61,507 nucleotides of DNA from Chiloscyllium plagiosum (lineage: Eukaryota). The stretch lies in NCBI RefSeq assembly GCF_004010195.1, contig NC_057746.1, positions 28,987,861 through 29,049,367 of the forward strand, written 5' to 3'. This document shows, one piece after another, positions 528-61,190 of this stretch (positions within the stretch are counted from its first letter, which is position 1; each line of letters starts with the position of its first letter). The position numbers and the translations under genes were made by a program. The notes under the pieces were generated by a model that worked only from the letters and a program-made list of their open reading frames with translations, made no database searches and had not been told where the DNA came from.

Positions 528-690
528 AGTTATAAATCACACAACACCAGGTTATAGTCCAACAGGTTTATTTGGAAGCACCAGCTTTCAGAGTGCTGCT
601 TCTTCACCTGATGAAGGAACAGTGCTCTGAAAGCTAGTACTCCCAAATAAATCTGTTGGACTGTAACCTGGAGTTGTTTGATTTTTAACT
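528..690. repeat. Compact ~163 bp palindrome of family B PLE tail centred on the hammerhead core
   Basis: agttataaatcacacaacaccagg...ttca (528-606) is an imperfect reverse complement of tgaagg...gatttttaact (612-690); loop cctga; same sequence as the outer arms of 28374-28924. Confidence 0.85.
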
Positions 691-766
691 CATTGGTGGG
701 GAATTGATTAGAAGCAATTCTGAGAGATCGAATTAACCTGCACTCTGTGAGGTAGCCATTAATCAA

Positions 767-1087
767 GGGTGACATGGTGGGTCAGTGGTTAGCACTGCTG
801 CCTCACTGCACCAGGGACCTGGGGTCAATTCCAGCCTTGGACAACTGTGTGTGTGGAGGTGCACATTCTCTCTGTGTCTGTGTATGTTTCCTCTGGATGC
901 TCTGGATTCCTCCCACAACCCAAACCTGTGCATGATGGGTGAATTGGCCATGCTAAATTGCCCATCGTGTTCAGGGCTGTGTAGGCTAGGTGCATTAGTC
1001 AGGGGTAAATAGAGAGTAGGGGAATAGGTCTGGCTGGGTTACTCCTGGGGGGGTCAGTGTGGATTTGTTGGGCAGAGGGCCTATTCC
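767..1087 (+). mobile_element. HE1-type tRNA-derived SINE
   Basis: A-box-like tggttagcactgctgcctca, B-box-like ggtcaattcc, core tgaattggccatgctaaattgccc, LINE-like tail; about nine copies in the window. Confidence 0.85.
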
Positions 1088-1895
1088 TAATTCTTAATAA
1101 CAGTCAGCATGGTTTTGTCAAGGGGAGGGTCATGCCTGACCAACTTGATTGGACTTTCTGAAGTGACAATCAGTTGTATAGATGAGGACAATGCTTTGCA
1201 GCTAGTCAACTTGGATTTCAGCAAGGATTTTGAAAAGGTCCCATATGGGAGACTGAGAACGAAAGTAAGAGCCTGTGGTTCCATGAAATTCTGCTAATTG
1301 GATCCATAGTTGATACAATTACAACATTTAAAGGCATTTGAATGGGAAGGGTTTAGAGGAATATGGGCCAAGTGTTGGCAAATGGGCCTAGATTTATTTA
1401 GGATATCTGTTCAGTGTGGACAAGTTGGACAGAAGGGTCTGATTCCATGCTGTACATCTGTATGACTCCACGACTTTGGGAAGCTCCAAGGACCAGAAAG
1501 ATGTTGGTATGCATATCCATCAGTGCCTTAAGGAAACAGGACAGGTGAATAAAGTAGGAAAGAAGGCATATTTGTGCTTGCATTGATTAGTTGAGGCATT
1601 GAGTTTAAGAGCAAGGGTGTTATGCTGGAACTGTATAAAGCACTGGTTAGACCACAGCTGGAGTGTTGTGTTTGGTTCTGGAAACCACATTATAGTTAGG
1701 AAGTGATTGTACAGGAGAAGGTGCAGAGGAGATTTACCAGGATGTTGCCTGGACTGGAGAGTTCAGTTGTGAAGAGACATTGGAGGTGTTTTCATTGGAG
1801 CACTGAGGGAGAACATTACGGGAACTTGAACAGGTGCAGGAAATCCATGGGATCTGGGAGGGGGTTGGGGTTGAGGGAAACTTGAACTCACTGCT
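1088..1895 (+). mobile_element. CR1/HER1-type LINE RT fragments (nested, decayed)
   Basis: Translations SCLTNLI...LDFSKDFEKVP and EKVQRRFTRMLPGL are typical of CR1 ORF2. Confidence 0.8.
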
Positions 1896-2349
1896 TGTTT
1901 TAAAAAAATTCTCAAGGTCAGGTTCGTAGGAGAGTAGTCTGACACAGAACAAACGACCAAGAGGCGAGTCTGCTAGAATATGGGCATTTTATTCCCCGCA
2001 GCGTCGCCACAACGGGTCTGGCTTATACTCACTCTACATGTTACCAAAACTGGGAGCCGTCAGTTCTCGTAGGGCGGTTGCCAACAACCCACGCTCGGCG
2101 GTTAAACGTAACCCCGGAGCAGACTCACCGAACTGGAGACTTTTCCAGCTGATATACTCTTTTCCAGATATAAACATTCATGTGAACAGCAGAGCAAGGC
2201 TAAAAAACACATTCCATTCTGGTTACATACAGATAAGAAGATTCACACGGGACTAAGCAACACCTCCATTCCGGTTAGATTCACACATGTATTGGGACAT
2301 AATTTTTAACCGTTTCACCACATTCCACTGCTTGGAATTTTACACCACA
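1896..2349 (-). mobile_element. Solo LTR, 454 bp
   Basis: TG...CA ends, 5 bp TSD ctgct (1891-1895 and 2350-2354) interrupting a CR1 3' region; aataaa on minus strand at ~1988-1993; CpG-rich. Confidence 0.75.
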
Positions 2350-6414: not shown

Positions 6415-6454
6415 ATGTTTCTCCTGCTTCAGATTCTTGTTTGGATCTTCTATG
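6415..6454 (+). CDS. Butyrophilin-like protein, signal peptide exon (MFLLLQILVWIFY+G); exon acceptor at 6357
   Basis: ATG 6415, 13 hydrophobic codons, phase-1 donor g|gtagga at 6455; joins 7495 to give MFLLLQILVWIFYETAA-DLHV, a plausible signal peptide. Confidence 0.7.
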
Positions 6455-7494
6455 GTAGGAGAACAACATTTAATAAATAATAACTAATATTAGTTTTTAA
6501 TTTTTTTTTGTCTGGTAAAAGTGGTAGCTTACAAATACTGAGTTGGAAGACAAGGATTTTTTATTCATTCATCGGATAAAGTAAAGTTGCTATTGTTCCA
6601 GAGGGCCGTAGGGCTGCTCTCTCATTAGAGAGATGAATGGTGACGGTTGAACCTGAGGTTCACCATGCCTTAGGTGAGGGGTGAGATTGAGAAGGAAGAA
6701 CCTTCATGGGAACCTCAGCCAGGGTGGGATTTGAAACTCTACTGTTGCTGTTATTCCAGCTGTCTGGCCAACTGAGTTAACCGAGTCCTATACAGGGTGT
6801 AGGGACACCCATGGTGTGACGAGAGAGAGACTTTCAGGTTTTTTTATCCAACATCATTGAAAGAATGGCAATATATTTCCAAAGCAGTAAAGTGAGTGGC
6901 TTGAAGGAGAACTTGCAAGTGGTAGTGTATTCCCATGTATCTGCTACTCTTATCTTTCTGGATGGTGGACATCATGGCTTTGGAAAGTGCTGTCAAAGAT
7001 GTCTTGGTGAGTTGCGGTATTGAATTTTACAAGTTCCCACTAATGTGCACTGCTTGTGCAGTCAGTGAATATTAAATGTCTTGGATGGGGTAATAACCAA
7101 TGGACCACTTTATCCTGGATAATGTCAAGCTTCTTAAGTGTTGATGGAGTTGCACTGATCTTGGCAAAGCCCACACTAGGGATTTCTGTAAGTAACCGAG
7201 GCTGGTTGTTCAGGTTGGCACTGAGGAAATGCTGCATTGCCAGATGGTCAGTACTATGGGAAATGTGAACTATTTTCTTAGTTCTCTGTCTGTTTATCTC
7301 TCACTCTGGTGCTTCTCCACGTTTCCCTCTCCCCTTCCCTCACTCTCTCTTTGTTCCTTTTGTCTCTCTGTTTCTTTCTCTCTGTCTGACTGCCTCCCCC
7401 TCTCTGTCTTATTATTCATGATATAACTGTAATGACCTTTGTGAAGACTGATGGATCTCATTCTCTAGCTCTCTCTCTATGCTGGCTGTTCCAG

Positions 7495-7857
7495 AAACTG
7501 CAGCAGATTTACATGTGACAGGACCATTTGACCCCATCATGGGGGTTGTTGGGGACGATGTCATCCTGGACTGTGTGCTGATCACGGCTGTAGCCCCAGA
7601 GAATATCGAAGTCCGCTGGATCAACATGGAATATGGCTACAACTCACCCATCCACATGTACACTGGGAGAGCAGACGACCTAACATTTCAACCCTCAACC
7701 TACAATGGCCGGACTGAGATGTTTCTCGATGAAGTGGCACAGGGGAATCTCTCTCTCAGGCTTAAAGATGTCAGCGTCTCCGATAGGGGACAGTACCAGT
7801 GCTTCGTTGTGTCCAATGACAAGCATAGCGATATCACAGTGACCCTGAATGTTACAG
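7495..7857 (+). CDS. Butyrophilin-like protein, IgV exon
   Basis: ILDC...EVRW...YNGRTEMF...GNLSLRLKDVSVSDRGQYQCFV is the BTN/MOG/B7 IgV signature; phase-1 acceptor ttccag (alternative in-frame cag at 7503/7506), donor g|gtcagt at 7858. Confidence 0.92.
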
Positions 7858-14580: not shown

Positions 14581-15949
14581 TGTAACAATTGTAATGAGGT
14601 CAGCCAGCTGGACCTCGTACACTGAGTCCCATGATTGGGACTATTAATTTGGTCCAATCAGGGTTTCCTGGTGAACATAAAGAAAGGTAAAAACAAGGAC
14701 TGCAGATGCTGGAAACCAGAGTCTAGATTAGAGTGGTGCTGGAAAAGCACAGCAGGTCAGGCAGCATCCAAGGAGCAGGAAAATCAACATTTTGGGCAAA
14801 GGATGTGTTGTAGATCGTGACTCTTTGGTACCCAAGTTTATATGAAGCATTACGATAATCAAAGATTGTTTATGTGTAAATACAGGATGACTTAATGACA
14901 GGAGACTGGCCTCTGTGGAGTTATTTCAGAGGCAATAAGAGCAAAGCATGATCCTGAAGAAATGTGCTCACAACAGTTGTCTTTGAATTGGAGTAAGCAT
15001 TTCTTACATCTTGTCTTCATTTGGGCAGCTTGACTGATTTGACCCTACTGTTAGAAACCAGTCCGAGTACGTGGAAAGAATGCATTATTATTTCTATGTA
15101 AATGACATTGTGGCAGATGAGAAAAGATGATTAAGTTTCCTGACAGCCTGTGGAGCTGCAGCTTTTTATATAATTAGCAGCCTAATTCATCCTGAAGCTC
15201 CACATACAAAAACATTTCAAGACATAGTTAAGGAATAATACGACCTCAAGCCTCTAATTCTAAGATTCTATCACTTTTACTCAGCAATTTGAAAACCAGG
15301 GGAATCTATATTGGGGTTTTTTATTAAATTAAGATGACTGGCCGAAGCTGATAACACTTAATGAGATGTGGGATTAATGATGTAACTATACAAAAATGTC
15401 TAGTCCAGTTTGCAGAATGGGCAGGTCAGGTTGTACAGTTTGTGAAGCCTGATGGGTCAGTTCCACTTTGTAGAGTCTTAAACAACCGGTAAAGTGCTTC
15501 TCATAGCTGGTTAAAGATTTAATCCCACAGACAGAGGATTTGTACACAAAGCTGGCTGGGGGGGGGGGCTGTTCTTCATGAAGCTGGATGTGAGCCACAT
15601 TTACTTGCAATTGTGTTTAGACCAGGAATGCCAGAAGTATGCTCTGGTAATACCCAAAAGGGTTTGTACCAATATACGAGACTACCCTTTAAGATGTTGT
15701 CAGCCTGTTCAATTTTTCAGCGGATGATGGAGAATATTTTGCAAGGTTGACCTCAGGTTACCATTTACCTAAATGATTTCCTGGTAACAGGTAAAGGAAC
15801 ACTTAGAGAATTTAGATACAGTCCTGAGGCATTTACTAAAGGCAGGCATATGCCTCAGAAGGGAAAAATGTTTGTTCCACACCTTCCAAGTGACCTGCTT
15901 GAACTACAGAGACAACAAGACCGGATTATACCCTGTTGAAAATGACGTG

Positions 15950-17245
15950 AGAATCATAATCCCTACAGTGTGAACACAGGTCCTTTGGCCCAACAAGTCC
16001 ACACTAACCCACCCAGACTCATTTCCCTACTCTATTATCCTGTATTTACCCCAGAACAATGCTGAAAAATGTGTTGCTGGAAAAGCGCAGCAGGCCAAGC
16101 AGCATCCAAGGAGCAGGAGAATCGATGTTTCGGGCATAAGCCCTTCTTCAGGAATGAGGAAGGTGTATCAAGCAGGCTAAGGTAAAAGGTAGGGAGGAGG
16201 GACTTGGGGGAGTGGCGTTGGGAATGCAATAGGTAGAAGGAGGTTAAGGTGAGGGTGATAGGCCGGAGAGGGGGTAGGGGTAGAGAAGTCGGGAAGAAGA
16301 TTGCAGGTCAAGAAGGCGGTGCTGAGTTCAAGGGTTGGGACTGAGATAAGGTGGGGGGAGGGGAAATGAGGAAGCTGGAGAAATCTGCATTCATCCCTTG
16401 TGGTTGGAGGGTTCCTAGGCAGAAGGTGAGGCGCTCTTCCTGCAGACATCGTGTTGCCATGGTCTGGCAATGGAGGAGGCCAAGGATCTGCATGTCCTTG
16501 GTGGAGTGGGAGGGGGAGTTAGAGTTCAGCCACGGGGTGGTTGGGTTGGTTGGTGTGGGTGTCCCAGAGGTGTTCTCTGAAATGTTCCGCAAGTAGGCGG
16601 CCTGTCTCCCCAATGTAGCCTGCTCTACAACACAAATTCACCTGCACCTCCACACACATCATTTACTGCATCCGCTGCACCCGTTGTGGCCTCCTCTACA
16701 ACCTTATCTCAGTCCCAACCCTCAAACTCAGCACAGCCTTCTTGACGTGCAATCTTCTTCCCGACCTCTCCACACCCACCCCCTCTCCAGCCTATCACCC
16801 TCACCTTAACCTCCTTCCACCTATCGCATTCCCAACACCCCTCCCCCAAGTCCCTCCTCCCTACCTTTTATCTTAGCCTGCTTGGCACATCTTCCTCATT
16901 CCTGAAGAAGGGCTTATGTCCGAAATGTCGATTCTCCTGCTCCTTGGATGCTGCCTGACCTGTTGCGCTTTTCTAGCAACACATTTTTCAGCTCTAATCT
17001 CCAGCATCTGCAGTCCTCACTTTCTCCCAGAACAATGCACCTAACCCATATATCCCTGAACGCTATGGGCAACTTAGTATGGCCTGTTCACCTAACCTGC
17101 ACATCATTGGGCTGCGGGAGGAAACCAGAGCATCTGGAGGAAACCACGCAGACATGGGGAGAATGTGCAAATTCCACACAGAATTGAACCTGTGTCCCTG
17201 CTGCTGGGAGGCAGCAATGCTAACCACTGAACCATCGTGCCACCA
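15950..17245 (-). mobile_element. HE1-type SINE inserted in Gypsy RT, itself split by a PLE
   Basis: Tail at 15950-16062 and head at 17026-17245 join across the cccagaacaatgc duplication. Confidence 0.85.
16063..17025. mobile_element. Penelope-like element (family A) with ~290 bp inverted arms and internal GIY-YIG fragments
   Basis: 13 bp TSD cccagaacaatgc (16050-16062, 17026-17038); 16061-16352 is inverted at 16701-16993; RCLQEERLTFCLGTLQPQGMN and IIYCIRC..CGLLY GIY-YIG motifs. Confidence 0.88.
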
Positions 17246-25124: not shown

Positions 25125-25789
25125 TAACAATTTATCTCCTCTAGTAAAACCACAAATTTTTATTATTTTCTGCTTCCTGTTTCATCACATGCTGTGCTAC
25201 TTTCAAATGCTGTTGACCACTAAAATAGACATAGTTCAAATATGTGGTAACCGAACTCTTGCTTACCAATTTTTCCTTAATTAATTTCAGTGGTCCTCTC
25301 AGCTCAGGTCTGAAAATTAATTTGGATGGACTGAACTTTAGTTAATTTGTTGGGTGCATCTCTAACTGCAAAAACTACAAATTAATTTCCTTTATCCCAT
25401 TTCTTTGAATAGTCTTGACTATAAGCCATGGTCCTTAAAGTTTGATGCTATCATTCTAATGCTCCTCGCAGTTGATTTAAATTGTTTTATACCTAAACTG
25501 TCCATAACTTCCTTGAATATTGTTGATGTAAAATTTGACCTGTGACCTGATTGTATCTCTGGATTGTCTTTACATAGTAAAACATTTGAGTAACTCATCT
25601 ACAGTCCTTTTAGACATGATATTGCAAAATGAAATCGCCTCTGGAAATAGTCTAGACACAGCTATTACGATTAACAAATATTGATGACCACTTTTTCTTT
25701 TAGGGAGGGGCCCAACGTAATAAATTAAGACTTGTAAAATGTTCCTCAATGCTTGAATAGGTGTTAGAATGAGGGTGGACTGACCTTGC

Positions 25790-27378
25790 CTCCGCTTATC
25801 TTGACTCCTTCCTGTTCACCTTCATCCAGGAACTTCCCAGTTACATTCGAGACACGTTCCATGCCTTCCACTTCCTCCATGATTTCCGATTCCCCAGCCC
25901 TCAACACCTCATCTTCACCATGGAAGACCTTCTGCACCTGTATTCTCTATGAGGAAGATTTAAAAGCCACTACACCAACACCTTCCACCCTGACCTTAAA
26001 TTCACTTGGACCATCTCCAACCCTCCTTCCCCTTCCTGCACCTGTCCATCTCCGGCGACTGGCTCAACACTGACATCTACTTCAAATCCACCAACTCCCA
26101 CAGCTTCCTTGATTACACTTCCTACCATCCCACCTCCTGTAACAATATGATCCTTTACTCCCAATTCCTCGGCCTTTGCTGTGTCTGCTCTCAGGATGAG
26201 CAAGTCCATCCCCAGATGTCCCTCTACCTCAAGGTCCGTAATTTCCCCTCCCCTGTGATCGACTGTCCCTTAAATTGTGTCTCCTCCATTTCCCGCACTA
26301 CTGCCTATGCTACGTCATCCCCCTAACCACAACAAGGATAGAATCCCTCTTATCATCACTTTCCATCCCACTAATCTCCAAATCCTACGTATAATCCTTC
26401 GCTATTTTCACCACCTATAATCAGATCCCACCACCAAAAATACATTTCCCACCGCCGCTCAATTTGTGTTCAGTAGGGACCGTTCCTTCCATAACTCCCT
26501 CATTAGGTCCACACTACTCATCAAACCCCTCAGTATCTGGCAACTTCTTCTACTGCTGTAAGAGGTGCAAAGCTTGTGCCCACACTTCCTCCATCCAAGG
26601 CTGCAAAGCTTCATTCCAAATCTGGCAGAGATTTACTCGTATATCCTCGGACCTCATTTACTGCAGATATTGGTCTCGATGAGGTCTCCTCTATATGAGA
26701 GAGACTGAACACAAACACGCAGAACTGTTCAGGGCTCATCTCTGGTCTGTATGCACCAACCGAACTCACTTTCTGGTGGCCATTCACTTCAAAAGCCTCT
26801 CCCATATCTCGATGACATGTCTATACTAAGCCTCCTCCACAGCCAAAAGGCCACCCACAAATTGGAGGAAGAATAACTTCCACCTCGAGAGTCTCCAACC
26901 ACATGGCCTCAACATTGACTTCACCAGTTTCCAAATCTCCCCTCCACCCCAACCCCATCCCAGATTCAATTCTCTGACTTCACACCACCCTCTTGACCCA
27001 TTCCTGTTGAAGGACTTTTGCCGGAAACTTCGATTTTCCTGCTTCTCGGATGCTGCCTGACCTTCTTTGCTTTTCCAGCACCACTCTAATCTTGACTCTG
27101 ATCTCCAGCATCAGCAGTCCTTACTTTCGCCTACCTGGGTCCATCTTCCTTTCCATATATCCGGTCCACACTTCATACCAACCTACCATCATCACCTCTT
27201 CCCTGCATCCATCTATTACCATCCCACCTACTATTTTCCTAGCCCCACTCTCCCTCCTCCTATTTATTTTTCAGCTCCCTTCCCCTTCCCAGTCCTGATG
27301 AAGGGCTATGCCTGAAATGTTGATGTTCTTGCTCCTCAGATGTTATCTGATCTGCTGTCTTTATCCAGCACCACACTT
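25790..27378 (+). mobile_element. Penelope-like element: RT C-terminus, GIY-YIG and tandem family A tails
   Basis: PFLHLSISGDWLNTDIYFKSTNSHSFLDYTSYHP (PLE RT thumb), LIYC GIY-YIG start, two direct tails at ~27002 and ~27293. Confidence 0.8.
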
Positions 27379-28425
27379 TAATTGAGAATATCTGAGGCAT
27401 GGTTAGTAAGTTTGCAGATGACATCAAAACTAGTTGTCTAGTGGATGATGAAGAAGGATATCTAAAATTATAAAGAGATCTTGACAATTGGGCCAATGGA
27501 CTGATGAGTGACAGATGGAATTTAATTTGGATAAGTGCAAGATATCGCATTTTGTTTTCACAAACAAGGGAATGACTTATGCAATTAATAATAGGGCCAT
27601 GGGTAGAACTTAGAGAACAAAGGGTTCAGGTAGATTATTATTTGAAATTTGCAACATAAGTAGATAGAGTGGTTAGGAAGGCATTTAGCATGCTTGCCTT
27701 CACTGCTCAGATTTTTGAGTATAGATGATGGGACATTATGTTGAGGTTGTACAGGATATTGCCTCTTGTCACCCAGTTCTGTTTGGAGAAAGTTGTCACC
27801 CAGTTCTGTTCTGCAGATGCTGGAGATCAGATTCAGGAGTGTGGTGCTGGTAAAGCACAGCAGGTCAGGCAGCATCTGAGGAGCAGGAGAATCAATGTAT
27901 AGGGTGTAAGCCCTTCATCAGGAATCCAGTTCCAGTTGCCTTGTTATAGGAAGGCTATTATTAAACTGCAGGGAAGGATGCCCGGAGGCATGGTACATTG
28001 GGGAAACCGAGCAAAGGCTACGACAACGAATGAATGGGCACCGCATAACAATCAACAGACAGGAGGGTTCCCTCCCAGTTGGAGAACACTTCAGTGGTCC
28101 AGGACATTCAGCCTCGGACCTTCGGGTGACCATCCTCCAAGGTGGACTTCGGGACAGGCAGCAGAGGAAAGTGGCCGAGCAGAGGCTGATAGCTAAGTTC
28201 GGTACCCAGAGGGAGGGTCTCAACCGGGACCTTGGATTCATGTCACCTTGGCGATTACCTTGGTGATCACCTTGGGACCTTGGTGATTACAGGTGATCAC
28301 CATTGCACTACACACACACACACGGATATTCCTACACACACACACTCTCACATACACACGGGGGGTGTACAAAGTTAAAAATCACACAACACCAGGTTAT
28401 AGTCCAACAGGTTTAATTGGAAGCA

Positions 28426-28460
28426 CACTAGCTTTCGGAGCGACACTCCTTCATCAGGTG
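28426..28460 (-). ncRNA. Minimal type I hammerhead ribozyme motif (family B, antisense arm)
   Basis: Minus strand cac CUGAUGA a ggagu guc gcucc GAAA gcU A gug; one G-U pair in stem II. Confidence 0.6.
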
Positions 28461-28837
28461 ATTGCGGAGGGCTCGTTCGTAACACAGAATTTATAGCAAA
28501 AATTTGCAGTGTGATGTAACTGAAATTATACATTGAAGAATTGATTGTTTGTTAAGCCTTTCATCTGTTAGAATACAGTGATAGTTTCACTTCTTTCATG
28601 TGTAAATCACAAAACCCTTTTTTTTAAAAGTTGCATTTTCAGGTTAACTGTTAACCCGAGAATGCAACTTTAAAAAAATAGGGTTTTGTGATTTACACAT
28701 GAAAGAAGTGAAACTATCACTGTATTCTAACAAATGAAAGGCTTAACAGACAATCAATTTTTCAATGTATAATTTCAGTTACATCACACTGCAAATTTTT
28801 GCTATAAATTCTGTGTTACGATCGAGCCCTCCACAAT

Positions 28838-28872
28838 CACCTGATGAAGGAGCGTCGCTCCGAAAGCTAGTG
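28838..28872 (+). ncRNA. Minimal type I hammerhead ribozyme motif (family B)
   Basis: Stem I cac/gug, core CUGAUGA(+A), stem II GGAGC/GCUCC, GAAA, palindromic AGCU stem III, predicted cleavage after CUA at 28869. Confidence 0.68.
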
Positions 28873-29900
28873 TGCTTCCAATTAAACCTGTTGGACTATA
28901 TCCTGGTGTTGTGTGATTTTTAACATTATTAAACTGGATAGGGTTCAGAAAAGATTTAGCAGGAATTTGCGGGTGTGGAGGGTTTGAGTTATTAAAATAG
29001 GGTAAATAGGTTGAGACATCTTTACTGACATAACCAATCTGAAAATTAGAAAGAACCTCTGAATTTATTATTCAAAAGCCAGAGCTTTCAGCTACAGGTA
29101 AATATAAATAAGTTGATTTTCTTCAGTCTTAAAGGGGCTTTTACAGCAGAGAACAGCGAACAGAGACAGCTCCTGAGCTGTTGGAAATCTGAAGATTTCT
29201 TTGTATTTTGTTCATAGCCCCAAGGTGTGCAGCTTCCTGAGAACCAGTCACATCATTGTTGGCAGGCTTTTGTCATCAGTAACTGGCCACTAATCTACAA
29301 GCCAATCAGCTTCTTGTTGCTGGCTCAGTCGCCATTTGTAAACCCTATTTCGGGCACCAGCTCATCTGCAACTTCTCCTACTACTGCTGGAACCAGCAGC
29401 TTTGTAAACAGTGTTTAAAATGAGTCGGGTTACTTGCTTTCGAAAACAGTCATCCTTGGTTTTAAAACATTTCAGACTATTTCAGATTGCAATAAAATAA
29501 AAAGATACAGTTTTTACCTTGTTGAACAGTGTATCACTAAGTCTGATTTATATTTCTTTGTCTCCTCTCCTTAACCAATACAATCACGTTAGCTTCATTT
29601 TTGAGGTGTGAGTGGTGACAATACTATACTGCAATCTAAGTTGGGAAATTGTCCTCCACTTTGCCTTCTGGTCAATGTGTTTATCTTTGACCCAAACTCA
29701 GTTTGGTACCAAAGCAAAGACAGAGCAAAAGGCTCCTCTCCTCTCTCCAACTCCCAAATTCCCAATGATCATTTCAAGCATTGGAAGACAAAATTGATAG
29801 CTAGAAGTACAGTTCTGCAGTGATCTAACCAAGTGGCATAGGGTGCCATGCTTTGGGGCCTACCCCCACAACCCCCTTCCTAATGTCTCTGTGATTGCAG

Positions 29901-34397: not shown

Positions 34398-34616
34398 TTA
34401 AAAACAGAATGCTGAAGAAACACATTTCATTTATCTCTGATCCTTAACTTGCACAACTAACAAGATACAGATCGGTTGGCCAAGGATTAGATATATGTCC
34501 TAATATATGATATATGATTCATTAAAATTAATGAATAAATAACAAAATATGAACAATTATTAATACAGAGAATACTACCGGTTAAGACAAGAGACATATT
34601 CCGTCTCAGCTTCAGA

Positions 34617-34750
34617 GTTCTGAGGAAGGTCACTGGACTTGAAACGATAATTCTGTTTTCTCACGACATTGCTGCCAGACCTACTGAATATCTCCAGCAT
34701 TATGTATTTTTGTGCTTTCAAATCTCTAGCATCTATAGTTGTTTCTTTGC
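34617..34750 (+). mobile_element. Penelope-like tail (family C) with hammerhead-like core
   Basis: ctgaggaaggtcactggacttgaaacg...gctgccagacc. Confidence 0.6.
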
Positions 34751-41429: not shown

Positions 41430-43800
41430 TGTGACCACAACTTTGTCACAGTGCTAATGGGTATTTGTTTATCTTGGGATGTTTTATATTTTTGGAAAGT
41501 AAACCACTATATTTTAAGGATTGTTCAAAATACCTAGCCTTAGTTTTTATTTACATTTTAGGGGAAATAACCAAAGCTTAGTGAGAAAGATTTCTTTCTT
41601 CTGTACTACTTTGTTTTTGGGGCAAGTCTGTGAAGTGCTTGTAAATGAGTGGTTGTACAGAACAGTGCTTCTGAAAAGGGGAGAATATCATGAAACTAGA
41701 TTACCTTCGAGTAAGGAGTTAATGTAAGTCCCCAACATAAGGTGTTGGGATAAAACCCTGGAGAAGTTATTTGAAACTGAGTATGTTTAAAATAACAGTT
41801 ACCTCGCACTATCCATGTGAGGAAGAGATTTATTTCCCTCTGGGATGAGTACAGTGCGAAAGATATTTTGTTGGGATTTTGTAAAGGATGCTTGTGATGT
41901 TAGTGGAATTATACTTTTACTGTGTGTTTAAAAGTACTGTGACGAGTAAAGGCGGAATTTATTATATTTCCATTTATTTTGTTTTATAAAATTTTTCTGT
42001 ATTTTGAAAAATAAAATCTGCAATCTTGTGTGCTTATACTTCAGTGGGAAACCACCTCACAAAAACCAAACCAAGCCAACATCTATCGATGATTCCTGAT
42101 GAACGGCATATGCCCAAAACGTCAATTCTCCTGCTCCTCAGATGCTGCCTGACCTGCTGTGCTTTTCCAGCAAAACACTCTAGACTCTGACCTCCAGCAT
42201 CTTCAGTCCTCACTTTCTCCAACATCTATTGAGCAATGTTTAAGTCTGGGATCTAACTTGCACAGTAACAACATTAGCTGGAATCATAACAATGGCAGAA
42301 GGTTTAGAGGGGATTTGAGCAAATTTATTTTCACCCCGATGTTGCTGGTGATCTACAATGCACTGCCTGGGAAGGTAATTGAGGCGGGTAACCTCACTAC
42401 CTTTCAAAACGTACTTAGATGATCACTTGAAATGTCATAACATTCAAGACCATGGGCCTAGTGGTGGAATGTGGGAAAAGTATAGACTTACTAAATTGTT
42501 GGTGATACAGACTCAATGGGCCTCCTCTGTACTGTATGATTCTATGAAAACTAAAGAAGCTATGTAAGCACAGGAGCTTAAAATATTGTGCAGGAACATT
42601 TAAAAGCTTGACAAGTAAAATTTTAAAAATGAGCAGACGAACATCAGAGTATGGCAAGCAAGAGATGAAGTTCTGCCTTTACAAAGTGAATCTCTGAAAG
42701 CAAAATCCAGTAGTTGCTACTAATTAGACGAATGAGTAAATTACTTGTCTGTCAGGCATTCCTGATCACAGAAAGATCAGTTGCCATGTCAATACATTGA
42801 AGAAATATCACAGGGAAGAAGGTGATGTGGACCTTTTTTACCACTAGCATCCTGAATTTTGTGATAGGTAAAGGATAGACAGCCAAGTTAGAATCTAATA
42901 CAACTTCATCTTTATTATCTCTAGTTTTTAGAAAGGAAACAAGCAACATATTAGCTAACTGTTTGACTAGAATCTAGACACTACCCATATGTGGTTAACT
43001 GGCCAGGTTTATCCTGATGAGTTGTAATCTGAATTCTGAATTCAGGATCTCCTCTTTGTGATGGTTGGTCTCATTGTTGTTCCAGTACTCGCTGTTGATG
43101 TCTTCAATATGGCTTCTTCTGTGTTTTCTCCCAATCTTGCAGACTGTTCAATATCATGCCCCCTTACAGGTTCCCTCAGTGCTGAACTCATTCATCCAAG
43201 AATCTAGAGATGTCAGTGTCATGGTTCCTATCACCAGTCATATTTTATCCTTTTTTCATCCACAGAAGTCAAATGACCTTTTGCACAGCCATTCGCTTCA
43301 GTCAGTAGTCTGATTTTAATACTTCCGGTCATAGTAAGCTGATTTGGCATTTCTGTAAAGTTAGTATAAACTTCCCCAGCATGCTTGTCCAGCTTCAGAT
43401 GTTAGGTATAGGGCAACAATTAGTGACATGATCACAATAAGGAACAGCACATATGTCAGGTGGGAAAAGATAGAGAATGCCAGATTCAATAAAGGTGAGG
43501 CAGAGAAAGGGTACACAATTCTTAAAGTGAACTCCACAATTTGACTAGCCAATATGGAAATACTGGAAAGGTTAACGCTGCGTTCTTGTATTTAAAGGAA
43601 GGACAACAGGAAGAGCTAATGAAGTTACTTGATCCATTTTATTTCCAATGTATAGTTCTACACCTGGATGCACTGTGTGAGCTAGACATGATCTGTGAAT
43701 TGAAGAACCAGAGCAGGTAAACAATATCCTTCCCAGTTGAGCCCAGAAAAACACAATCTTAGGTGAATGAACACTTGCTGGGAAAAGAAATGTCACTTTT
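41430..43800 (+). mobile_element. Highly decayed LTR retrotransposon relic with nested PLE tail (~42090-42220) and CR1 piece
   Basis: LTR-like end cataaca at ~42291; PDHRKISCHVNTLKKY at ~42760-42810 resembles Gypsy integrase C-terminal HVNxLKxY. Confidence 0.35.
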
Positions 43801-46640: not shown

Positions 46641-47984
46641 GAACTATTTCACAGACCTTGCTTGGGCAAGTATGAATCGCATTTGTGAAGGTGTGATGTA
46701 ATATGTAGACCAGAAAAGTCAAGGGCAGCAGATTTCCTCTTGGGTTGAATGAGACGGGGTCTGAGACCATCTTTTCATTTGAGACTGAGATTGAATTTTT
46801 GATTCAAATTTTTTGTTTAAATATGCTTAATTAACTGAATTTAAATCACTGCACCCAGGCTGAGATCCATCCTCAGGTTTTCAGTGGATTAGTGGGGGAA
46901 CAAGGTTATTATCCAGAATATTCCCATTTTCTAAATATCCAAGCATGACATTTCCAGTCCAAAGAAAACATCCTCCTTGCATTGCTCATATGAAGTTGTA
47001 TCAATGAGATCACCCTTCATTCTCTTATACTCTGAGGAATAAAGGTCTCGACCACTCAATCACAGTTCAGAGAACAATCCCCACCAAAGATCCATCTGGT
47101 GAATCTTTGTTACACTCGTTATGAGGAAGGTCTATCCTCCTCAGGTAGGGACAACAAAGGTTCTTGGGATGCCAGCTGTGGTTTCGATGAGTGTCTGTAA
47201 AATTGCTGTCAAAGTTATATACTTTTGCTAAGGAAATGCAGGAGTTAACAGTGATCTCCATAAACAGGATATGATATCTGAATACACTTCAGCTGGAGTT
47301 CTGAGGAAGAGTCACTCAACTTGACACCTTAAAACTGCTCTGGATTAGTGGTGCTGGAAGAGCACAGCAGTTCAGGCAGCAGCCGAGGAGCAGTAAAATC
47401 GCGTTTCGGGCAAAAGCCATTCATCAGGAATACAGGCAGAGAGCCTGAAGGGTGGAGAGTTAAGTGAGAGGAGGGTGGGGGTGGATTGATGCCCTGGGGT
47501 TGAAGTGTTCCGAGGCGGAAGATGAGGCGTTCTTCCTCCAGGCGTCTGGTGGTGAGGGAGCGGCGGTGAAGGAGGCTCAGGACCTCCATGTCCTCGGCAG
47601 AGTGGGAGGGAGAGTTGAAATGTTGGGCCACAGGGCGGTGTGGTTGATTGGTGCGGGTGGGGAGGGATGTTCCCTAAAGCGCTCTGCTAGGAGGCGTCCA
47701 GTCTCCCCAACGTAGAGGAGACCACATCGGGAGCAATGGATACAATAAATGATATTGGTGGATGTGCAGGTAAAACTTTGATGGATGTGGAAGGCTCCTT
47801 TAGGGCCATGGATGGAGGTGAGGGTGCAAGTTTTGCAGTTCCTGTGGTGGCAGGGGAAGGTGCCAGGATGGGAGGGTGGGTTGAAGGGGGCGTGGACCTG
47901 ACCAGGTAGTCACAGAGAGAACGGTCTTTGCAGAAGGTGGAAAGGGAAATATGGTGGGGTCTGGGGTCTGAGGTGGCAGAAATG

Positions 47985-48299
47985 ATTAGATTAGATTACA
48001 TTACAGTGTGGAAACAGGCTCTTCAGTCCAACAAGTCCACACCGACCCGCCGAAGCGCAACCCACCCATACCCCTACATTTACCCCTTACCTAACACTAC
48101 AGGCAATTTAGCATGGCCAATTCATCTGGCCTGCACATCTTTTGGATTGTGGGAGGAAACCGGAGCACCCGGAGGAAACCCACACAGATACGGGGAGAAC
48201 GTGCAAACTCCACACAGTCAGTCGCCTGAGGCGGGAATTGAACCCGGGTCTCCGGCGCTGTGAGGCAGCAGTGCTAACCACTGTGCCACCGTGCTGCCC
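47985..48299 (-). mobile_element. HE1-type SINE nested in PLE
   Basis: Near-consensus, (attag)n tail at 47985. Confidence 0.9.
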
Positions 48300-48824
48300 A
48301 CTAATGTCGGCGGATGATTTGGTTTATGTGAAGCTTGGTAGGGTGGAAGGTGAGCACCAGGGGCGTTCTGTCCTTGTTACGGTTGGAGGGGTGGGGTCTG
48401 AGGGCGGAGGTGCAGGATGTAGATGAGATGCATTGGAGGGCATCTTTAACCATATGGGAAGGGAAATAGTGGTCTCTAAAGAAGGAGGCCATCTGGTGTG
48501 TTCCATGGTGGAACTGATTCTCCTGGGAGCAGATATGCCGGAGGCGGAGGAATTGGGAATATGGGATGTCATTTTTGCAGGAGGTATGGTGGGAAGAGGT
48601 GTAATCCAGATAGCTGTGGGAGTTGGTGGGTTTGTAAAAAATGCCGGTATCAAGTCAGTCGTCATTAATGGAGATGGAGAGGTCCAGGAAGGGGATGGAG
48701 GTGTCACATCTCCGGGACACCCGCACCAATCAACCACACCACCCTGTGGCCCAACATTTCAACTCCCCCTCCCACTCTGCCGAGGACACCAGACGCCAGG
48801 AGGAAGAACGCCTCAGGAATGCCT

Positions 48825-48867
48825 GTATTCCTGATGAAGGGCTTTTGCCCGAAACGTTGATTTTACT
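48825..48867 (+). ncRNA. Minimal hammerhead ribozyme motif (family A)
   Basis: CUGAUGA a GGGC uuuu GCCC GAAA cgU U; palindromic ACGU stem III; stem I weak/bulged. Confidence 0.5.
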
Positions 48868-49489
48868 GCTCCTCGGATGCTGCCTGAACTGCTATGCTCT
48901 TCCAGCACCACTAATCCAGGATCTGGTTTCCAGCATCTGCAGTCATTGTTTTTTACCTGTCTTAACACTGCTCCCCGCAGATGCTGCCAGACCCGCTGAG
49001 CTTTTCCATCAATTTCTGCTTTGCTTTCACACTTTCACTGGATATTGGTGAACAAGTTTCAAAATTGTGTTCTCGATGATCCTCTGGCAGGTGGTTTCTT
49101 AGAGAGAGTTCAGCATCAGGTAATTTGCTCCTCAGAGTGAATCCCATTGCAATTTTTAGCAGAATAATGAAAACAAAACTGGAGTGCAGTAGATCGTAAG
49201 TGATGTGTCCAAGTCAGTGTTTCGTTTCTAACTTAGCACTGCTGCCTCACAGCACCAGGTACCTAGGTTCGATTCCAACCTCAGGAGACTATCTGTGTGG
49301 AGTTTGCAAATTCTTCCTGCGTCTGCGTGGGTTTCCTTTGGATGATTCAATTTCCTCCCACAGTCTAAAGATGTACAGATTAAATGGATTGGCCATGGGA
49401 AATGGACGTTACAAAGAGAGGTCAGTGGGTAGATATAGGTGGGGTGTTTTTCAGAGAATCGATGTGGATTTGAATTAAATTAAATTTGT

Positions 49490-51104: not shown

Positions 51105-51243
51105 AATATAAGCCTTTCCTGAAGAAGGGCTTATGCCCGAAACGTCGATTCTCCTGTTCCCTGGATGATGTCTGACCTGCTGCGCTTTTCCAGCAACACA
51201 TTTTCAGCTCTGATCTCCAGCATCTGCAGACCTCACTTTCTCC
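51105..51243 (+). mobile_element. 139 bp PLE family A insertion consisting of hammerhead motif plus 3' tail
   Basis: 15 bp TSD tcaaaatattgacaa (51090-51104, 51244-51258). Confidence 0.85.
51116..51150 (+). ncRNA. Minimal hammerhead ribozyme motif (family A)
   Basis: CUGAAGA a GGGC uuau GCCC GAAA cGUC (predicted site after 51146); stem I only ~2 bp. Confidence 0.5.
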
Positions 51244-51489: not shown

Positions 51490-51765
51490 TGCATCTTCCC
51501 ACTCACCAAATCGCTCCACCCTTCCCACTGACCAATCACAATAATCCCCAACCTGCATTCACCTATCACCGTCCATCTACCCTTTTCCCCAGCCCCATCC
51601 CCTCCCTCTATTTCTATCTGGGCTCCCTCCTGAGACCAGACGAAGGGTTTCTGCCCGAAACAGTGACTTTCCTGCTCCTCGGATGCTGTCTGACCTGCTG
51701 CACTTTTCCAGCTCCATATCTATTGACTCTGACTTCCAGCATCTGCAGTCCTTCAGTCTCCTGCG
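51490..51765 (+). mobile_element. PLE family A-like 3' tail
   Basis: gaagggtttctgcccgaaacagtgactttcctgctcctcggatgctg...ccagcatctgcagtcc. Confidence 0.65.
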
Positions 51766-54356: not shown

Positions 54357-54434
54357 GTAAAGGGTAAATATCTTATAAACTGAGAGCTCTATTATGTTCC
54401 GACACATTAATTCTGTAATTTCTCTCAATTCCAG

Positions 54435-55921: not shown

Positions 55922-58490
55922 CTAACGAGGGGAATAACGACAAGATAGGAAGAGGTATCTGGAGCTGGTGCTCAGCCTCTGCAATGTAGCGATCAGTCTG
56001 CCAGAGTACAACAGCAGCACTCTGATCAGCAGGCTTCATAACAAAGTCAGGTTAGATCTGAGAGTACAGAGTGCTCAGTTTCTTTGAAAAAGAATCTGCT
56101 CCCCATCCCACAGACCCCTTAGCCCAGCTTCAACATTCTCCCTCCACCTGGGCCCCTCTCCCATGTCTTTTGACCTGTACTTGATCTGTTCCTTGAGGGC
56201 TATCACAACTGTGACATTGATCACCTCAATTTGTCTGCCCCCATTACACATTCCAATCTATCATCCCAAGAACTGACAGCACTACGTGCACTCAGATCCA
56301 ACCCTGACTTTGTGATGAAGCCTGCTGATCAGGATGGGGCTGTTGTAGTCTGGCAGACTGACCTCTATATTGCTCAGGTTGAGCGCCAGCTCTCAAATAC
56401 CTCCTCCTATTGCTTCCTGGATCCTGATGCCATGATGGAACAACAGACCATTGTTTCAACCACAGTCACCAACCTCATTTCATGTCATGTTCTCCCACAA
56501 CATCCTCCAAACTGACATCCTCCAATCCTGAAAAATTAATTTCGATCTCCTTCCCAAAATTCCCAGGCAGACCCATTGTTTCTGCCTGCTCCTGCCCCAC
56601 AAAACTCATCACTTCCTACCTTGACTCAATCTTTTCTCCCCTGGTCCTGTCACTGCCCACTTGCATCCATGATTCCTCGGATACTTTATGCCAGTTTAGA
56701 ATTTCCATTTGCAGACTCCAGCTGCCTGCTGTTCACCATGGGATGCATAATCCCTTTATGCATCCCAACCCCATCAGTATGGTCTCAGGACTCTCTATGT
56801 CTTCCTGGAACAATGCCTAAACCATCCCCACCCACCACCACCCTCCTTCACCTGGCCAAGCTCATCCTCACTCTGAACAACTTCTCTTTTAACTTCCATA
56901 ATTTTCTTCAGGTCAAAGGTGTGACCATATGTATTTGCATGGACCCAAGTTTTGCCCATCTCTTTGTGAGATATTGGAATATTCCTTGTTTCAGTCCTTT
57001 TCTGCCCCCACCCACAAGTCTTTCTTCAGTAGATTGATGATATATCATCAGTGCTGACTGCCTGTCTTGTCTAGAATTGAAGTTTATCTATTTTGCTTCC
57101 AACTTCCACCCTGCTCTTACCTTCACCTGGTCCATCTTTGACCCCTCCCTTCCTTTCTTTGACATCTATATTCCTATTTCTAGGGATCAACTCTCCCCTA
57201 ATATCTATTATAAACCCACCAACTCCCAAAGTTATCTGGGTGGTGCTGAGTTCACTGCTTTTCATCATTCATATAAATGATTTGGATGGGAACATGTGAG
57301 GTTTAGCTATTAAGTTTGCAGATGACACTAAAATTGGAGGTGTAGTGGACAGCAAAAAGGTTACCTCAGAGTACAATGGGATCTTGTGCAAATGGGTCAA
57401 TTGGCTGTTAAGTGGCAGATGGAGTTTAATTCAGATAAATGTGAGGTGCTGCATTTTGGGGAAGCAAATCAGAGCAGGATATATACACTTACTGGTAAGG
57501 TCCTAGACAGTGTTGCTGAACAAAGAGACCTTGGAGTGCAGATTCATAGTTCCTTGAAAGTAGAGTCACAGGTAGATAGGATAGTGAAGAAAGATATTTG
57601 GTATGCTTTTCTTTATTGGTCAGAGTATTGAGTATAGGTGTGGGAAGGTCATGTTGCAGTTATCCAGGATATTGCTTAGGCCACTTTTGGAATATTGTGT
57701 ACAATTCTTGTCTCCTTCCTATTGGAAGCATGTTGTGAAACCTGAAAGCATTCAGAAAAGATTTACAAGGGTGTTGCCAAGTTTGGAGGATTTGAGCTAG
57801 AGGGAGAAGCTGAATAGGCTGGAGCTGTTTTCCCTGGACTATCATAGGCTGAGGTCCTTAGAGAAATTTATGGGACTAGATTAGGTTAGGGTTTCTGGTC
57901 ATCATGGAGAAGTTGGACTGAAGAGTCTGTTTCCGTGCTATTCATCTCTATCACTGTACATGCTCACACCCTGCTTCCTGTAAAGACCATAATCCATTCT
58001 CCCAGTTCCCCCTTATTCGATGATGCCACTGTTGACAAGGGAGCCTTCAAAGTTTCCATCTTGTTCCTCAACAGATGATTTCCCAGCATCATTGTTGAGA
58101 GGGCCCCCAGCTGGGTCTGATTCATTTCCTGTAATTCAGCACTCACGCCCTCTTCTTTCCCAAAACAGTGATTGTATTACCTTGTCCTTACCCAGCATCC
58201 ACATGCAGAGGATCATTTGCTGCCATTTCTGCCACTTCCTGCAAGATGCCACCACCAGACACCAGACGCCTCCCCTCCTTTGTCAGCTTTCTGCGGGGAC
58301 CGTTGCCTTTGGGACACCCTGGTTACTTGCAACATCGCCCACCAACCATCCCACCTGCCCAGCCTCATGGTACGTTCCCCTTGCTACCATCAGTTCTGAG
58401 GAAGGGTCACTTGACCAAATACGTTAACTCTGATTTTGCTGCACAGCTGCTGCCAGACCTGCTGAGCCTGATGACTATCTACAGGTTTAA
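55922..58490 (+). mobile_element. Penelope-like element (family C), RT region with inverted 5' segment, split by CR1
   Basis: ALRSNPDFVMKPADQDGAVVVW, GRPIVSAC, LILTLNNFSFN..FLQVKG; 55945-56084 inverted relative to 56268-56410; family C tail at 58393-58470. Confidence 0.8.
57240..57960 (+). mobile_element. CR1-type LINE 3' fragment nested in PLE
   Basis: HINDLD, KFADDTKIGG, WQMEFNSDKCEVLHFG. Confidence 0.88.
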
Positions 58491-58579
58491 CACAGTTAGG
58501 TGTTAAACAAGGCAGAGATATTTGTACATTTCCATAAGGGAGGATGAATAGACAGTTTGTAGATAGTGATTTTGATAGA

Positions 58580-58865
58580 ATCCAAGAATCCCTTCAGTGT
58601 GGAAGCAGGCTATTCAGCACCATCGAGAACACACCAATCCCCAGACTCAACCCCCACCATATCCCTGTTACTCCACATTTCACATGGCTACATCTACCTA
58701 GCCTGCTCACTATCGAGAAAAGTTGCATAGCTTTGCACTGTGGGAGGAAACCCATGCAGATAGTCGCAAACATGCAAACACCACACAGACATTTACCCAA
58801 AGCTTGAATCAAACTCAGCTCCCTCATGTAGTGAAGCAGCAGTGCTAACCATTGAGCTAACATCA
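58580..58865 (-). mobile_element. HE1-type SINE (diverged)
   Basis: gcagcagtgctaaccattgagcta head on minus strand. Confidence 0.75.
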
Positions 58866-59864
58866 TGAGCGCTTTTACTGATCAAGCAGTCAATCCAGTA
58901 TGAGGGTTGTGATTCAGTGAAATATTCCTGCTCAGTTTTCCAAGGATTTGGAATGTGAGAAGGGTCCAGGTCATCTTGCAGGTGGGGGCAGGTGACTGGA
59001 AAATTGCCATTATTTCCAGGTGAGGGAACAGACCAATTTAGGATGCTGAGAATATGGGAGGAAATCGACAACAATGAAGCAATGAGTAGCCATGTGAATA
59101 ACTAACTCATCTCCTAGGAACAGAGAAATCGCTACAGAGGAGGGTATGATAAATCAAATTGTATTCAAATATCACCCATGGTGCCCACATATTAGCCCAA
59201 AGAACTTTTGAACCATTGAAGTGTTTTTGAGGAATATTCCCTATTGTAATGAGGGCAATGAGAGAATCCATCTGTGAACAATGAGGTCACAGAAACAGCA
59301 TTGTGATTATGAGAAAGTCATCAGTTTTGATGGTATTAGTTGTGGTAGAAAGGTTCAGTTACACCAAGGAAGCCAACACATTGCATTATTTCTAACAGCA
59401 ATGCAAGAGGTCAAAAAGTAGGTCCTCGAGGATTGTAATATCTGTTCTCGTGTCAGGAGGAATAGGAGGATAAAGTAGATTAATTTATGGCTGAGGAGCT
59501 GGTGTGAGGAGCATTTTTGGACAATTTGGGTCTCTTCTTGGGAAGAAGTGAACTGACTAAGAAGGACTGGCTGCAACTAAATTGGAAAGGGACCAATATC
59601 CTCGCAGGGAAATTTGCTAGTCCTACTCGGGAGGCTGAAGGGTGAATTTGATGAAGGGTTAGAGAATTATGATGAGTATAAATGAGTAAATAGCAAGCTT
59701 ATTTTCCCTTAATGGAATGTTCAATAACTGGGGACATAGGTTTAAGGGAGGGCGCAGGGGTTTTCGAGGGGGATTACTCACTCGGATGATCATAGGTGTC
59801 AGGAACTGACTGCCTGAAAGGAGACAGAAATCTTTGCAATATTTTGGAAGTCATGCAGTTGGAG

Positions 59865-61190
59865 TGATAGAGTCACACAACACAGAAACAGACTCTTCCA
59901 TCCAAGTCATCTGCACTGACCAGATACCCCAAACTGACCTAGTCCCTTTTACCAGCATTTGGCCGATGTCCGAAGCATGCCATACTCCCTTTTCACTACC
60001 CTGTTCCATCTGCAATTCCACCCCAAATTACCATGCACCTGCTCCCCCAGGCCTCTCATTCAGTAACACTCCCCAGTATCACACCATCAACTATATGAGT
60101 ATTGTCGTGGTTTGCCCAACCAAATTGCAACACCTCACATTTATCTAAATTAAACTCCATCTGCCACTCCTCAGCTCATTGACCCATCTCATCAAGGCCC
60201 TGTTATGCTCTGAGATAATCCTTTTTACCATCCGCTAGACCACCTATTTTTGTGCCATCAGCAATCTTACAAACCATGCCTCTTTTTTCACATCCAAATA
60301 ATTTATATAAATGACACACTGATCCTTGTGATGCACTGCTGGTCATAGTTCTGTCACCACCCTCTGTCTCCTACCTTCAAGTCAGTTTTGTACTGAATTA
60401 ACAAGCTCCCCGGATCCCATGGGATGTAACCTTACAAACCAGTCTACCATGCGGAACCTTGTTGAAAGCTTTGCTGAAGTCCATATGGACAACCTCTACT
60501 GCTCTGCCTTCATCAATCTTTTTGTCACCTCTTCAAAAAATCAATAAATACATCATTTCCTAATTATAAAGCCATGTTGACTGTTGCTAATATGTCATTG
60601 TCTTTCCAAATGTATGTAAATTCTGTCATTTTTTTCTCCAACAACTTAGCCACTACTGATGTAAAGCTCACGGGTTTAATATTCCATTGCATTTCCTGAG
60701 AGACAGTGAGGACTGCAGTTGCTGGAGAGTCAGACTTGGTAAAGCGTGGTGCAGGAAAAGCACAGCAGGTCAGGTAACATCCAAAGAGCAAGAGGGTCAA
60801 TGTTTCGGGCATGACGCATCTTCAGTCCTGAAGAAGAGTCATGCTGTAAACTTTGACTCTCTTGTCCTCGGATTCTGCCTGACACGCTGTGCTTCTTCCA
60901 GTGCCATGCTTTACCAACACTCGCTTTTCCTTACAGCCTTTCTTAAATAATGGCACCAAATTAACCAATCTCCAGTTCTGGCACCACAGCCATGGCTGTC
61001 GATGGTACAAATATGTCAGTGAGGGGCCCAGCAATCTCTTCCTTAGCTTCCCATGAAGTTCTGCAAAACACCTCAGGTCATGGGGATTTATCCAGCTTTA
61101 TACATTTTAAGTCCTCCAGCACCTCGTCTTCTCTAATATGAACTCTTTTCAAGACATCACTAATTATTTCTCCAACTTCCCAAACTCCTG
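59865..61190 (-). mobile_element. CR1-type LINE fragment
   Basis: NWRLVNLVPLFKKG, PVSFTSVVAKLLEK, DFSKAFNKVPH. Confidence 0.8.
60698..60917. repeat. Compact palindrome of family A PLE tail centred immediately 5' of the hammerhead core
   Basis: 60736-60825 inverted at 60828-60917, centre tcttcag-tc-ctgaaga; inserted in CR1 with degenerate TSD. Confidence 0.8.

Follow-up and report, generated by a model that had tools for sequence, protein, structure and literature searches.

The 61,507-nucleotide stretch of the Chiloscyllium plagiosum genome considered here (assembly GCF_004010195.1, contig NC_057746.1, positions 28,987,861 to 29,049,367 of the forward strand; hereafter the window) holds the first exons of a butyrophilin-like (BTN) gene among many ends of Penelope-like elements (PLEs) that carry hammerhead ribozyme motifs. 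It raises the question of whether such motifs cut host transcripts, as an original prediction made from the letters had proposed, or belong to the life of the elements themselves. It is very likely that they are mostly the decayed ends of three PLE families, whose hammerhead cuts rarely and in the RNA of its own element, and that host transcripts stay intact. According to this reading, hammerhead activity would need a second copy and probably also the element's protein, most insertions would be copied from uncut RNA, reverse transcription would have two fixed starting points, 85-125 bases behind the core, and would halt at the 5' edge of the hammerhead, and a minority of the RNAs would be cut, their 5'-hydroxyl (5'-OH) end being now and then joined to U6.

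The motif itself has been known since 2014, and the interest lies in a poly(A) site, in the clustering of copies at the 5' edge of the motif and in the U6 joins, none of which was found described in the open-access literature. With ~0.8 million end-pieces (extrapolated) and fixed start and stop points, the shark genome is a record of the PLE mechanism. The poly(A) site is used upstream of the inserted 3' ends, which rules out 3'-end priming at those positions for tailed family B RNAs; the U6 joins would mark the ribozyme cut in the germ line; all together make the timing of the hammerhead in the copying cycle testable.

Three families of element ends and the state of their motifs

A search with profiles built from near-identical genomic copies of families A, B and C located 23 PLE end remnants with a hammerhead motif in the window (14 A, 4 B and 5 C). 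The predicted number of about 20 copies in three families is thus borne out, but only four of them carry the full motif, and none of these belongs to family C. The same four (28457 minus, 28841 plus, 48831 plus and 51119 plus) are the only matches to a strict descriptor that comprises the core, the extra base, a 4-bp stem II, GAAA, a self-complementary 15.2/16.2, U-H and a 2-bp stem I, and strict matches were absent from all of 100 first-order Markov resamples of the window. The 19 damaged or shortened copies comprise 11 with core changes, three with a broken palindrome, two with a broken stem II, one with a broken stem I and two truncated ones. Only four of the 11 positions named in the original prediction are complete: at 16902 and 27295 the palindrome reads ATGT and not ACGT, 42096 is without G12, stem I is broken at 608, and 34620, 47301 and 58396 each show core changes. 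Its coordinates are right to within 1-3 bases (42096, 58396 and 28457 in place of 42095, 58395 and 28460), its cut positions after 28869 and after 51146 are correct, and what it called tails are indeed the ends of pseudo-long terminal repeats (pLTRs), sitting behind PLE reading frames. The PLE features of the window are the following (RT, reverse transcriptase).

39..144, minus: family C pLTR end with broken core (profile search, motif scoring)
405..525, plus: family A pLTR end with broken stem II and 8-bp target duplication (profile search)
529..689, both strands: family B head-to-head pair with one common core and a single-hairpin fold (604-689 plus, stem I broken; 614-529 minus, core broken)
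14687..14800, minus: family A pLTR end that lacks the 5' half of the core
16051..17027, both strands: family A inverted pair with 292-bp arms flanking GIY-YIG fragments (16154-16051 minus, 16899-17027 plus; both palindromes broken by CpG decay)
25779..27126, plus: broken PLE RT-thumb-GIY-YIG frame (25779-26739), then a family A end (27000-27126, core broken)
27291..27389, plus: family A end with broken palindrome
27811..27925, minus: family A end with broken core
27958..28254, plus: GIY-YIG endonuclease fragment of family B; a longer frame of this family located elsewhere is 88% identical
28371..28927, both strands: inverted pair of family B with 278-bp arms at 96% (motif intact at 28457 minus and 28841 plus; predicted cut after 28869)
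28881..28900, plus: poly(A) hexamer ATTAAA (28881-28886) with family poly(A) sites at 28898 and 28900 and a GU-rich stretch behind; use seen for family B as a whole, not for this copy
34616..34716, plus: family C end with broken core
42093..42220, plus: short family A insertion with 11-bp target duplication, its motif without G12
47297..47339, plus: family C end with broken core
47338..48953, both strands: family A element whose RT-thumb-GIY-YIG fragments lie on the minus strand (end 47432-47338 minus, core broken; inverted end 48825-48953 plus, intact motif 48831)
48962..49029, plus: family C tail without core, immediately after a family A end
51115..51243, plus: short family A insertion with 15-bp target duplication (motif intact at 51119, cut predicted after 51146; stem II pairs with a short inverted 5' piece)
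51635..51753, plus: family A end with broken core
58390..58491, plus: family C end with broken core
60700..60902, both strands: family A head-to-head pair, both broken (60825-60700 minus, 60826-60902 plus)

That the genome is densely seeded with such motifs, as had been supposed, agrees with an even sample of the chromosomes (80 stretches of 10 kb at regular intervals, 762,032 bases other than N), which contained 191 remnants (126 A, 20 B and 45 C) and 32 strict motifs, i.e., one remnant per 4.0 kb and one strict motif per 24 kb. Extrapolation to 3.3 Gb (the genome is 3.56 Gb) gives ~830,000 remnants and ~140,000 strict motifs (95,000-196,000, Poisson limits that ignore clustering in pairs). 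The window, with 23 remnants where 15.4 are expected (P 0.04) and four strict motifs where 2.6 are expected (P 0.26), is a slightly above-average part of a dense, ordinary and mostly dead population of PLE ends. By a profile-based score, 27 of the 126 A, none of the 20 B and none of the 45 C copies of the even sample are intact. The strict descriptor also matched an inverted pair at L168:8929 (minus) and L168:9541 (plus) that represents a fourth hammerhead family, distinguished by a longer stem II and without a copy in the window. An Rfam scan of the window returned no hammerhead family among its four matches at E up to 5; the mir-101 and bantam matches were rejected, being the family B hairpin 529-689 with scores under the gathering thresholds.

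On genomic copies, the proposed three-family architecture of stems and palindromes is confirmed. Stem II is GGGC/GCCC in family A, GGAGC/GCUCC in family B and GGGUC/GACCC in family C, and the 15.2/16.2 palindrome, which stands without a stem III of its own, is ACGU in A and C and AGCU in B. All three profiles have the minimal type I hammerhead core, CUGANGA and GAAA with U16.1 and H17 (complete in 4/23 window copies), and an extra A between A9 and 10.1, with changes at this A in 5 of 88 copies of family A. Pair II.1 (10.1-11.1) of family A is G-C in 68/87 and G-U in 14/87 copies. Helix I consists of 2 bp and a mismatch in most of family A, of 4 bp in one A subfamily and in C, and of 3 bp in B.

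The claim that the stems covary holds in part. The tails of families A and C are homologous, and paired substitutions separate them in stem I (C-G to U-A) and in stem II; within family A, 5 of 84 scored copies have A-U instead of G-C at the second stem II pair, vs. a shuffle mean of 0.5, these being related copies and not independent events; the other six pairs tested within family A show 0-1 paired changes each. Family B cannot be aligned to A or C outside the motif, and therefore its differences from A amount to a shared architecture rather than to tracked covariation.

Conservation of the core beyond its flanks is likewise upheld for one family only. Among 89 family A copies, variation affects 3.4% of positions in the core, 8.4% in stem II, 21% in loop II and 47% at N7, and across subfamilies non-CpG changes reach 1.7-2.7% in the core vs. 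4.7-7.7% in the tail, a comparison that favours the core, as copies were retained only if their match began at the core start. In families B and C the difference between core and flank is not significant. CpG changes affect 20-49% in copies; following insertion, decay sets in at the CpGs of G12 and of the palindrome, the latter being lost at its CpG in 38 of 89 family A copies, and selection would seem to preserve the motif in active master elements only. Folding of single copies did not yield the hammerhead and was mostly no better than that of shuffles, as expected since the motif is dimer-dependent; the fragment 51105-51243, proposed for a cleavage test, is predicted to misfold via its short inverted 5' piece.

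The assignment to PLEs, also part of the original prediction, is well founded, as every feature of the published minimal type I consensus is matched and PLE frames lie upstream. A same-strand PLE frame within 900 bases upstream accompanies 47/238 A, 29/118 B and 12/107 C copies, shares that are not genome averages, as the loci were partly picked by PLE protein searches. Longer copies carry RT, thumb, cysteine linker and GIY-YIG in that order, with Pfam matches to RVT_1 (E 1.7e-4) and GIY-YIG (E 7e-4) that are both under the curated cut-offs. The family B frame gave no Pfam RT or GIY-YIG match, and its assignment rests on motifs and on its 34% identity to family A. A CX2-5CxxC zinc-finger linker, which marks Neptune or Nematis elements and is absent in Penelope/Poseidon according to the accessible part of one source (PMC8557442), reads CHHRNCKTC (CxxxxCxxC) in family A, its first C being replaced in the translated B copy. 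By this linker families A and B would be Neptune-type, Nematis being formally possible too. In addition, 5'-truncated inverted copies, an optional 30-40-bp tail and target duplications occur, as in endonuclease-bearing (EN+) PLEs.

Minimal hammerheads (min-HHR) in the pLTRs of metazoan PLEs are described as inactive as monomers and of low activity as dimers, and are known from fish Xena, Poseidon and Neptune elements, from coelacanth and from Xenopus (Cervera and De la Pena, 2014; PMC4209133, accessible part). The shark motifs share with them CUGANGAH, the G-C closing pair, GAAA, the palindrome, UH, the extra base between 9 and 10.1 and a short helix I, as well as the presence of several consensus families per genome with covariation and of mostly single or opposite-strand copies. 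No shark is among the species in the searchable supplement of that survey, while other supplements may list shark families. Its available counts are ~4,000 for coelacanth and ~9,000 for Xenopus, vs. the ~140,000 extrapolated here with a different descriptor. Stem II is 4-5 bp here as opposed to 7-8 bp in Schistosoma.

Origin of the copies and probable traces of cleavage

Most copies are 90-125 bases long, often with a target duplication or an inverted twin. In the even sample, 98 of 126 family A copies match from +4 or earlier (C3 being +1) and 5/126 start from +25 to +34, around the cut. A pile-up of 5' ends at the cut (+24 to +34) was sought and not found (11/253 A, 2/99 B and 8/125 C copies, including loci fetched for other reasons). 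C3 is reached by 170 A copies: for 67 of them an inverted partner is located within 150 bases, 59 stop less than 25 bases upstream and 44 extend further, although rare family A subfamilies could be misread here as ending early. Target duplications flank 20 of 80 solo copies vs. 0-7 in shuffles, 16 of the 20 with a boundary at -14 to +5, in a test that left out copies starting after +16. The 3' ends fall at two points 30-35 bases apart, near +90 and +125 in A and near +84 and ~+120 in B. On the strength of these 5' ends, duplications and 3' ends, most insertions contain the motif complete and uncut and end at its 5' border.

Head-to-head pairs comprise 80/126 A, 8/20 B and 15/45 C copies, and same-strand neighbours within 500 bases 16/126 A, 0/20 B and 2/45 C copies (2/23 in the window). 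Tandem units with a full hammerhead each, by which non-LTR (long terminal repeat) retrozymes are recognized, were not found, same-strand neighbours occurring in 18 of 191 sampled copies. In solo short insertions the target duplication is often separated from the core by a few inverted bases of the motif (51105-51118, 42087-42095 and 396-405), a miniature version of the head-to-head pairs.

A retrovirus-like, strong-stop type of copying, which we regard as rather doubtful, would place the 5' end of the RNA at the hammerhead edge and its 3' poly(A) just past the hammerhead of the next pLTR, with internal priming 85-125 bases in, synthesis up to the 5' end and a jump over the repeated hammerhead. 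Failed jumps would leave short and inverted copies, family B would have spread tens of thousands of poly(A) cassettes ending host or promoter-divergent RNAs, and the ribozyme would cut a minority. The poly(A) site of family B lies at +58 to +60, ahead of both 3' ends (+84 and ~+120), so that priming at those ends needs read-through RNA or the 5' end of the RNA. In the loci examined neither a transcription start site nor a full tandem copy was found: 20 stretches around long open frames yielded only broken or gapped copies, and sequence of the element past the tail is common to none of 374 full-ended copies. Stalling at hairpins, or self-priming on an antisense template as described in the accessible part of PMC3846280, explains the inversions equally well.

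Indirect traces of the cut itself come from U6. Among the best 30 of 48 U6 matches, two copies (L240 and L257) have the U6 T tract joined to a family A tail at position 1.1; they lie on different chromosomes and in different A subfamilies, and the inverted arm of L257 ends at the same base. By eye, two further copies of the 30 lie near internal family A sequence, about ten adjoin the 5' end of a common tRNA-derived short interspersed element (SINE), which we take to be HE1-like, and one adjoins tRNA-like sequence (SINE and tRNA-like cases: L238, L245, L246, L250, L255, L258-L263 and L241). Since in two of the 30 U6 copies the junction falls precisely on the family A cut, the family A ribozyme likely cuts in vivo, if rarely, and the joins would fit ligation of U6 to a 5'-OH end. 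In U6/L1 chimeras, U6 is reported to be ligated by RtcB, which needs a 5'-OH (PMC6789731, accessible part). There too a U6 ending in five U is joined to retroelement RNA, and a hammerhead cut would supply the 5'-OH; the partner here differs in being a PLE joined, presumably by ligation, at the predicted ribozyme cut.

For the Anolis Poseidon element PAc, the accessible text of Frangieh et al. (2024; PMC11167929) reports cleavage only with the element's protein, uncut RNA as the main template and no RNA-seq ends at the cut. PAc and the shark families would have in common uncut RNA as the main template, the lack of RNA-seq ends at the cut, and two start sites of reverse transcription that define an optional tail, which here would correspond to the two 3'-end peaks of A and B. 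They differ in that PAc belongs to the Penelope/Poseidon clade, whereas A and B have a Neptune-type linker, in that the PAc tail is the start of the reading frame, whereas no continuation past the tail is found here, and in the poly(A) site, which that text does not describe for PAc. With Neptune-type EN+ PLEs, as far as PMC8557442 and PMC3846280 are accessible, the shark elements share the C-terminal GIY-YIG, the linker, strong 5' truncation, head-to-head inversions, the 30-40-bp tail and target duplications; those parts make no mention of 5' ends tightly clustered at the edge of the hammerhead.

Element transcripts, the butyrophilin-like gene and competing explanations

Raw single-cell RNA reads of one sample (~2 in 100 of the run, poly(A)-primed and not collapsed by molecule tags) gave 1826 reads on the family B end and 2636 on the family A end, with no site at which many molecules start or end. 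Reads of both families, polyadenylated ones among them, pass over the cut. Family B depth is even over 28869/28870, and family A reads come from both strands with a depth that climbs gradually across the end. Family B core variants at 5% or more are U4 (52/772) and position 17 (59/839), no core position differing in more than ~7% of reads.

Non-templated A follows 28898 in 270 reads and 28900 in 351, where the DNA has no A run, and family B depth falls at these sites from 856 to 119. The hexamer (AWUAAA) lies 12-14 bases ahead and a GU-rich stretch just behind, and polyadenylation takes place 29-31 nt past the predicted cut. AATAAA or ATTAAA is present in 76/90 B copies vs. 5/95 A and 1/63 C. 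One short B copy (L201:1376-1500, minus strand, 10-bp target duplication), for which 68 reads share a flank mapping to this one place, lies some hundred bases downstream of a GC-rich region and opposite an antiparallel reading frame, and probably terminates a promoter-divergent RNA. As far as host RNA is concerned, the measurable effect would seem to be the family B poly(A) signal and not cleavage. Neither a poly(A) signal in PLE pLTRs nor a report of shark PLE hammerheads was found in the open-access literature, though either may have been reported.

The host gene in question has its first exons on the plus strand of the window, and its immunoglobulin exons find their best protein matches in butyrophilin-like proteins of bamboo and epaulette sharks.

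6415..6455, plus: signal-peptide exon, start codon to donor
7494..7857, plus: IgV exon, start approximate
29898..30185, plus: IgC exon, spanned end to end by RNA contigs at 100% identity
31588..31705, plus: candidate transmembrane exon (splice signals and a hydrophobic run)

The last of these is the one good candidate from a splice-and-hydrophobicity scan, a tblastn search with five BTN proteins having returned no transmembrane or B30.2 exon in the window. RNA contigs from two runs span the IgC exon exactly from splice site to splice site and are preceded by 481 and 705 bases; they fit splicing to IgV, what is observed being the exon edges and not the joint. Between the start codon at 6415 and 31705 lie eight remnants, four of them sense and one of these intact (28841), for which there is no same-strand family B partner in that interval and which, together with its inverted twin, is predicted to form a -454 kcal/mol hairpin, a 278-bp duplex that buries the motif.

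Cutting of host RNA, i.e., dimerisation of intact intronic copies in BTN (or TRIM) pre-mRNA with cleavage of nascent transcripts and a lowered or shaped expression, is thus most improbable. In its favour stand the four intact motifs, the apparent ability of family A to cut in vivo given the U6 joins, the number of strict motifs genome-wide and a report, in the accessible part of 10.64898/2026.07.22.740005, that tandem retrozymes avoid introns in Xenopus. Nevertheless, the sole intact sense copy in the mapped BTN introns is partnerless and inside a predicted duplex, spliced contigs exist, family reads are uncut, copies decay at CpG rates and the window density is near the genome average, and the motifs likely leave host transcripts such as BTN pre-mRNA intact. 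Several points do weigh against our conclusion. Copies past 31705, where the mapped part of the gene ends, may or may not lie in the BTN transcript, and 48831 and 51119 are both intact, on the same strand and 2.3 kb apart with a common palindrome and 2-bp stem I, so that a dimer in some transcript is possible, a case tempered by the inverted twin of 48831 and the predicted misfold of 51119. A hand-written dimer fold lies 9-15 kcal/mol above the co-folded minimum and neither proves nor excludes activity. The reads stem from the whole family and not from the window locus, BTN being barely present in the run, and a poly(A)-primed library loses tail-less 5' products and short 3' products and under-reports cleavage; for these reasons the reads attest abundant uncut RNA rather than the absence of cutting. 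Finally, the U6 joins are two cases only, and microhomology of 1-2 T bases is possible.

That the short copies are a SINE- or retrozyme-like class, released as unit RNAs by the hammerhead, circularised and reinserted, is very unlikely, if a little less so than host cutting. Many of the 90-125-base copies have target duplications, four reads run back 125 bases on a family A copy, and a type I hammerhead is the defining feature of non-LTR retrozymes, for which an origin from PLE pLTRs has been proposed and of which one chondrichthyan genome has examples (10.64898/2026.07.22.740005; PMC7229834; accessible parts). Those retrozymes, however, are tandem arrays with a hammerhead per unit, whereas the shark copies are dispersed or inverted: units do not start at the cut, close same-strand neighbours are rare with no tandem unit arrays seen in the window, and the four reads equally fit a genomic tandem. 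A non-catalytic role, with the motif kept as a fold or binding site at which the PLE protein would mark the stop or jump of reverse transcription and with cleavage incidental, is improbable, though it is the least so of the three; 5' ends and inversion junctions do cluster at the motif's 5' edge, and catalytic mutants of the Anolis element are without effect on insertion in vitro (PMC11167929, accessible part). On the other hand, families whose proteins are ~34% identical have all retained every catalytic base of the core, H17 and the dimer palindrome, and the U6 joins are located at the cut.

Further observations in and around the window

The IgV-IgC intron of the BTN gene (7857-29898) is 22 kb long, while that of the upstream neighbouring paralog is ~2.6 kb (L183:5101-7677). 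Both lie in a butyrophilin/TRIM/B30.2 cluster, in which several B30.2 exons are broken (L185-L199). TRIM-like gene pieces occupy 53991-54790, with a RING/B-box gene at 53991-54380 on the plus strand, and the closest B30.2 exon downstream of them (L187:3030-3572) has a stop codon.

Broken RT and RNase H pieces of LTR-retrotransposon type are found at 20477-21354 (minus). The coreless family C tail (48953-49029) starts approximately at its own predicted cut and adjoins a complete family A tail, which may reflect joining to a cut end or template switching. Older PLE RT fragments, 37-38% identical to the family A protein, are present at 49334-50227 (minus) and 56080-57265 (plus), the latter of which may belong with the family C end at 58396.

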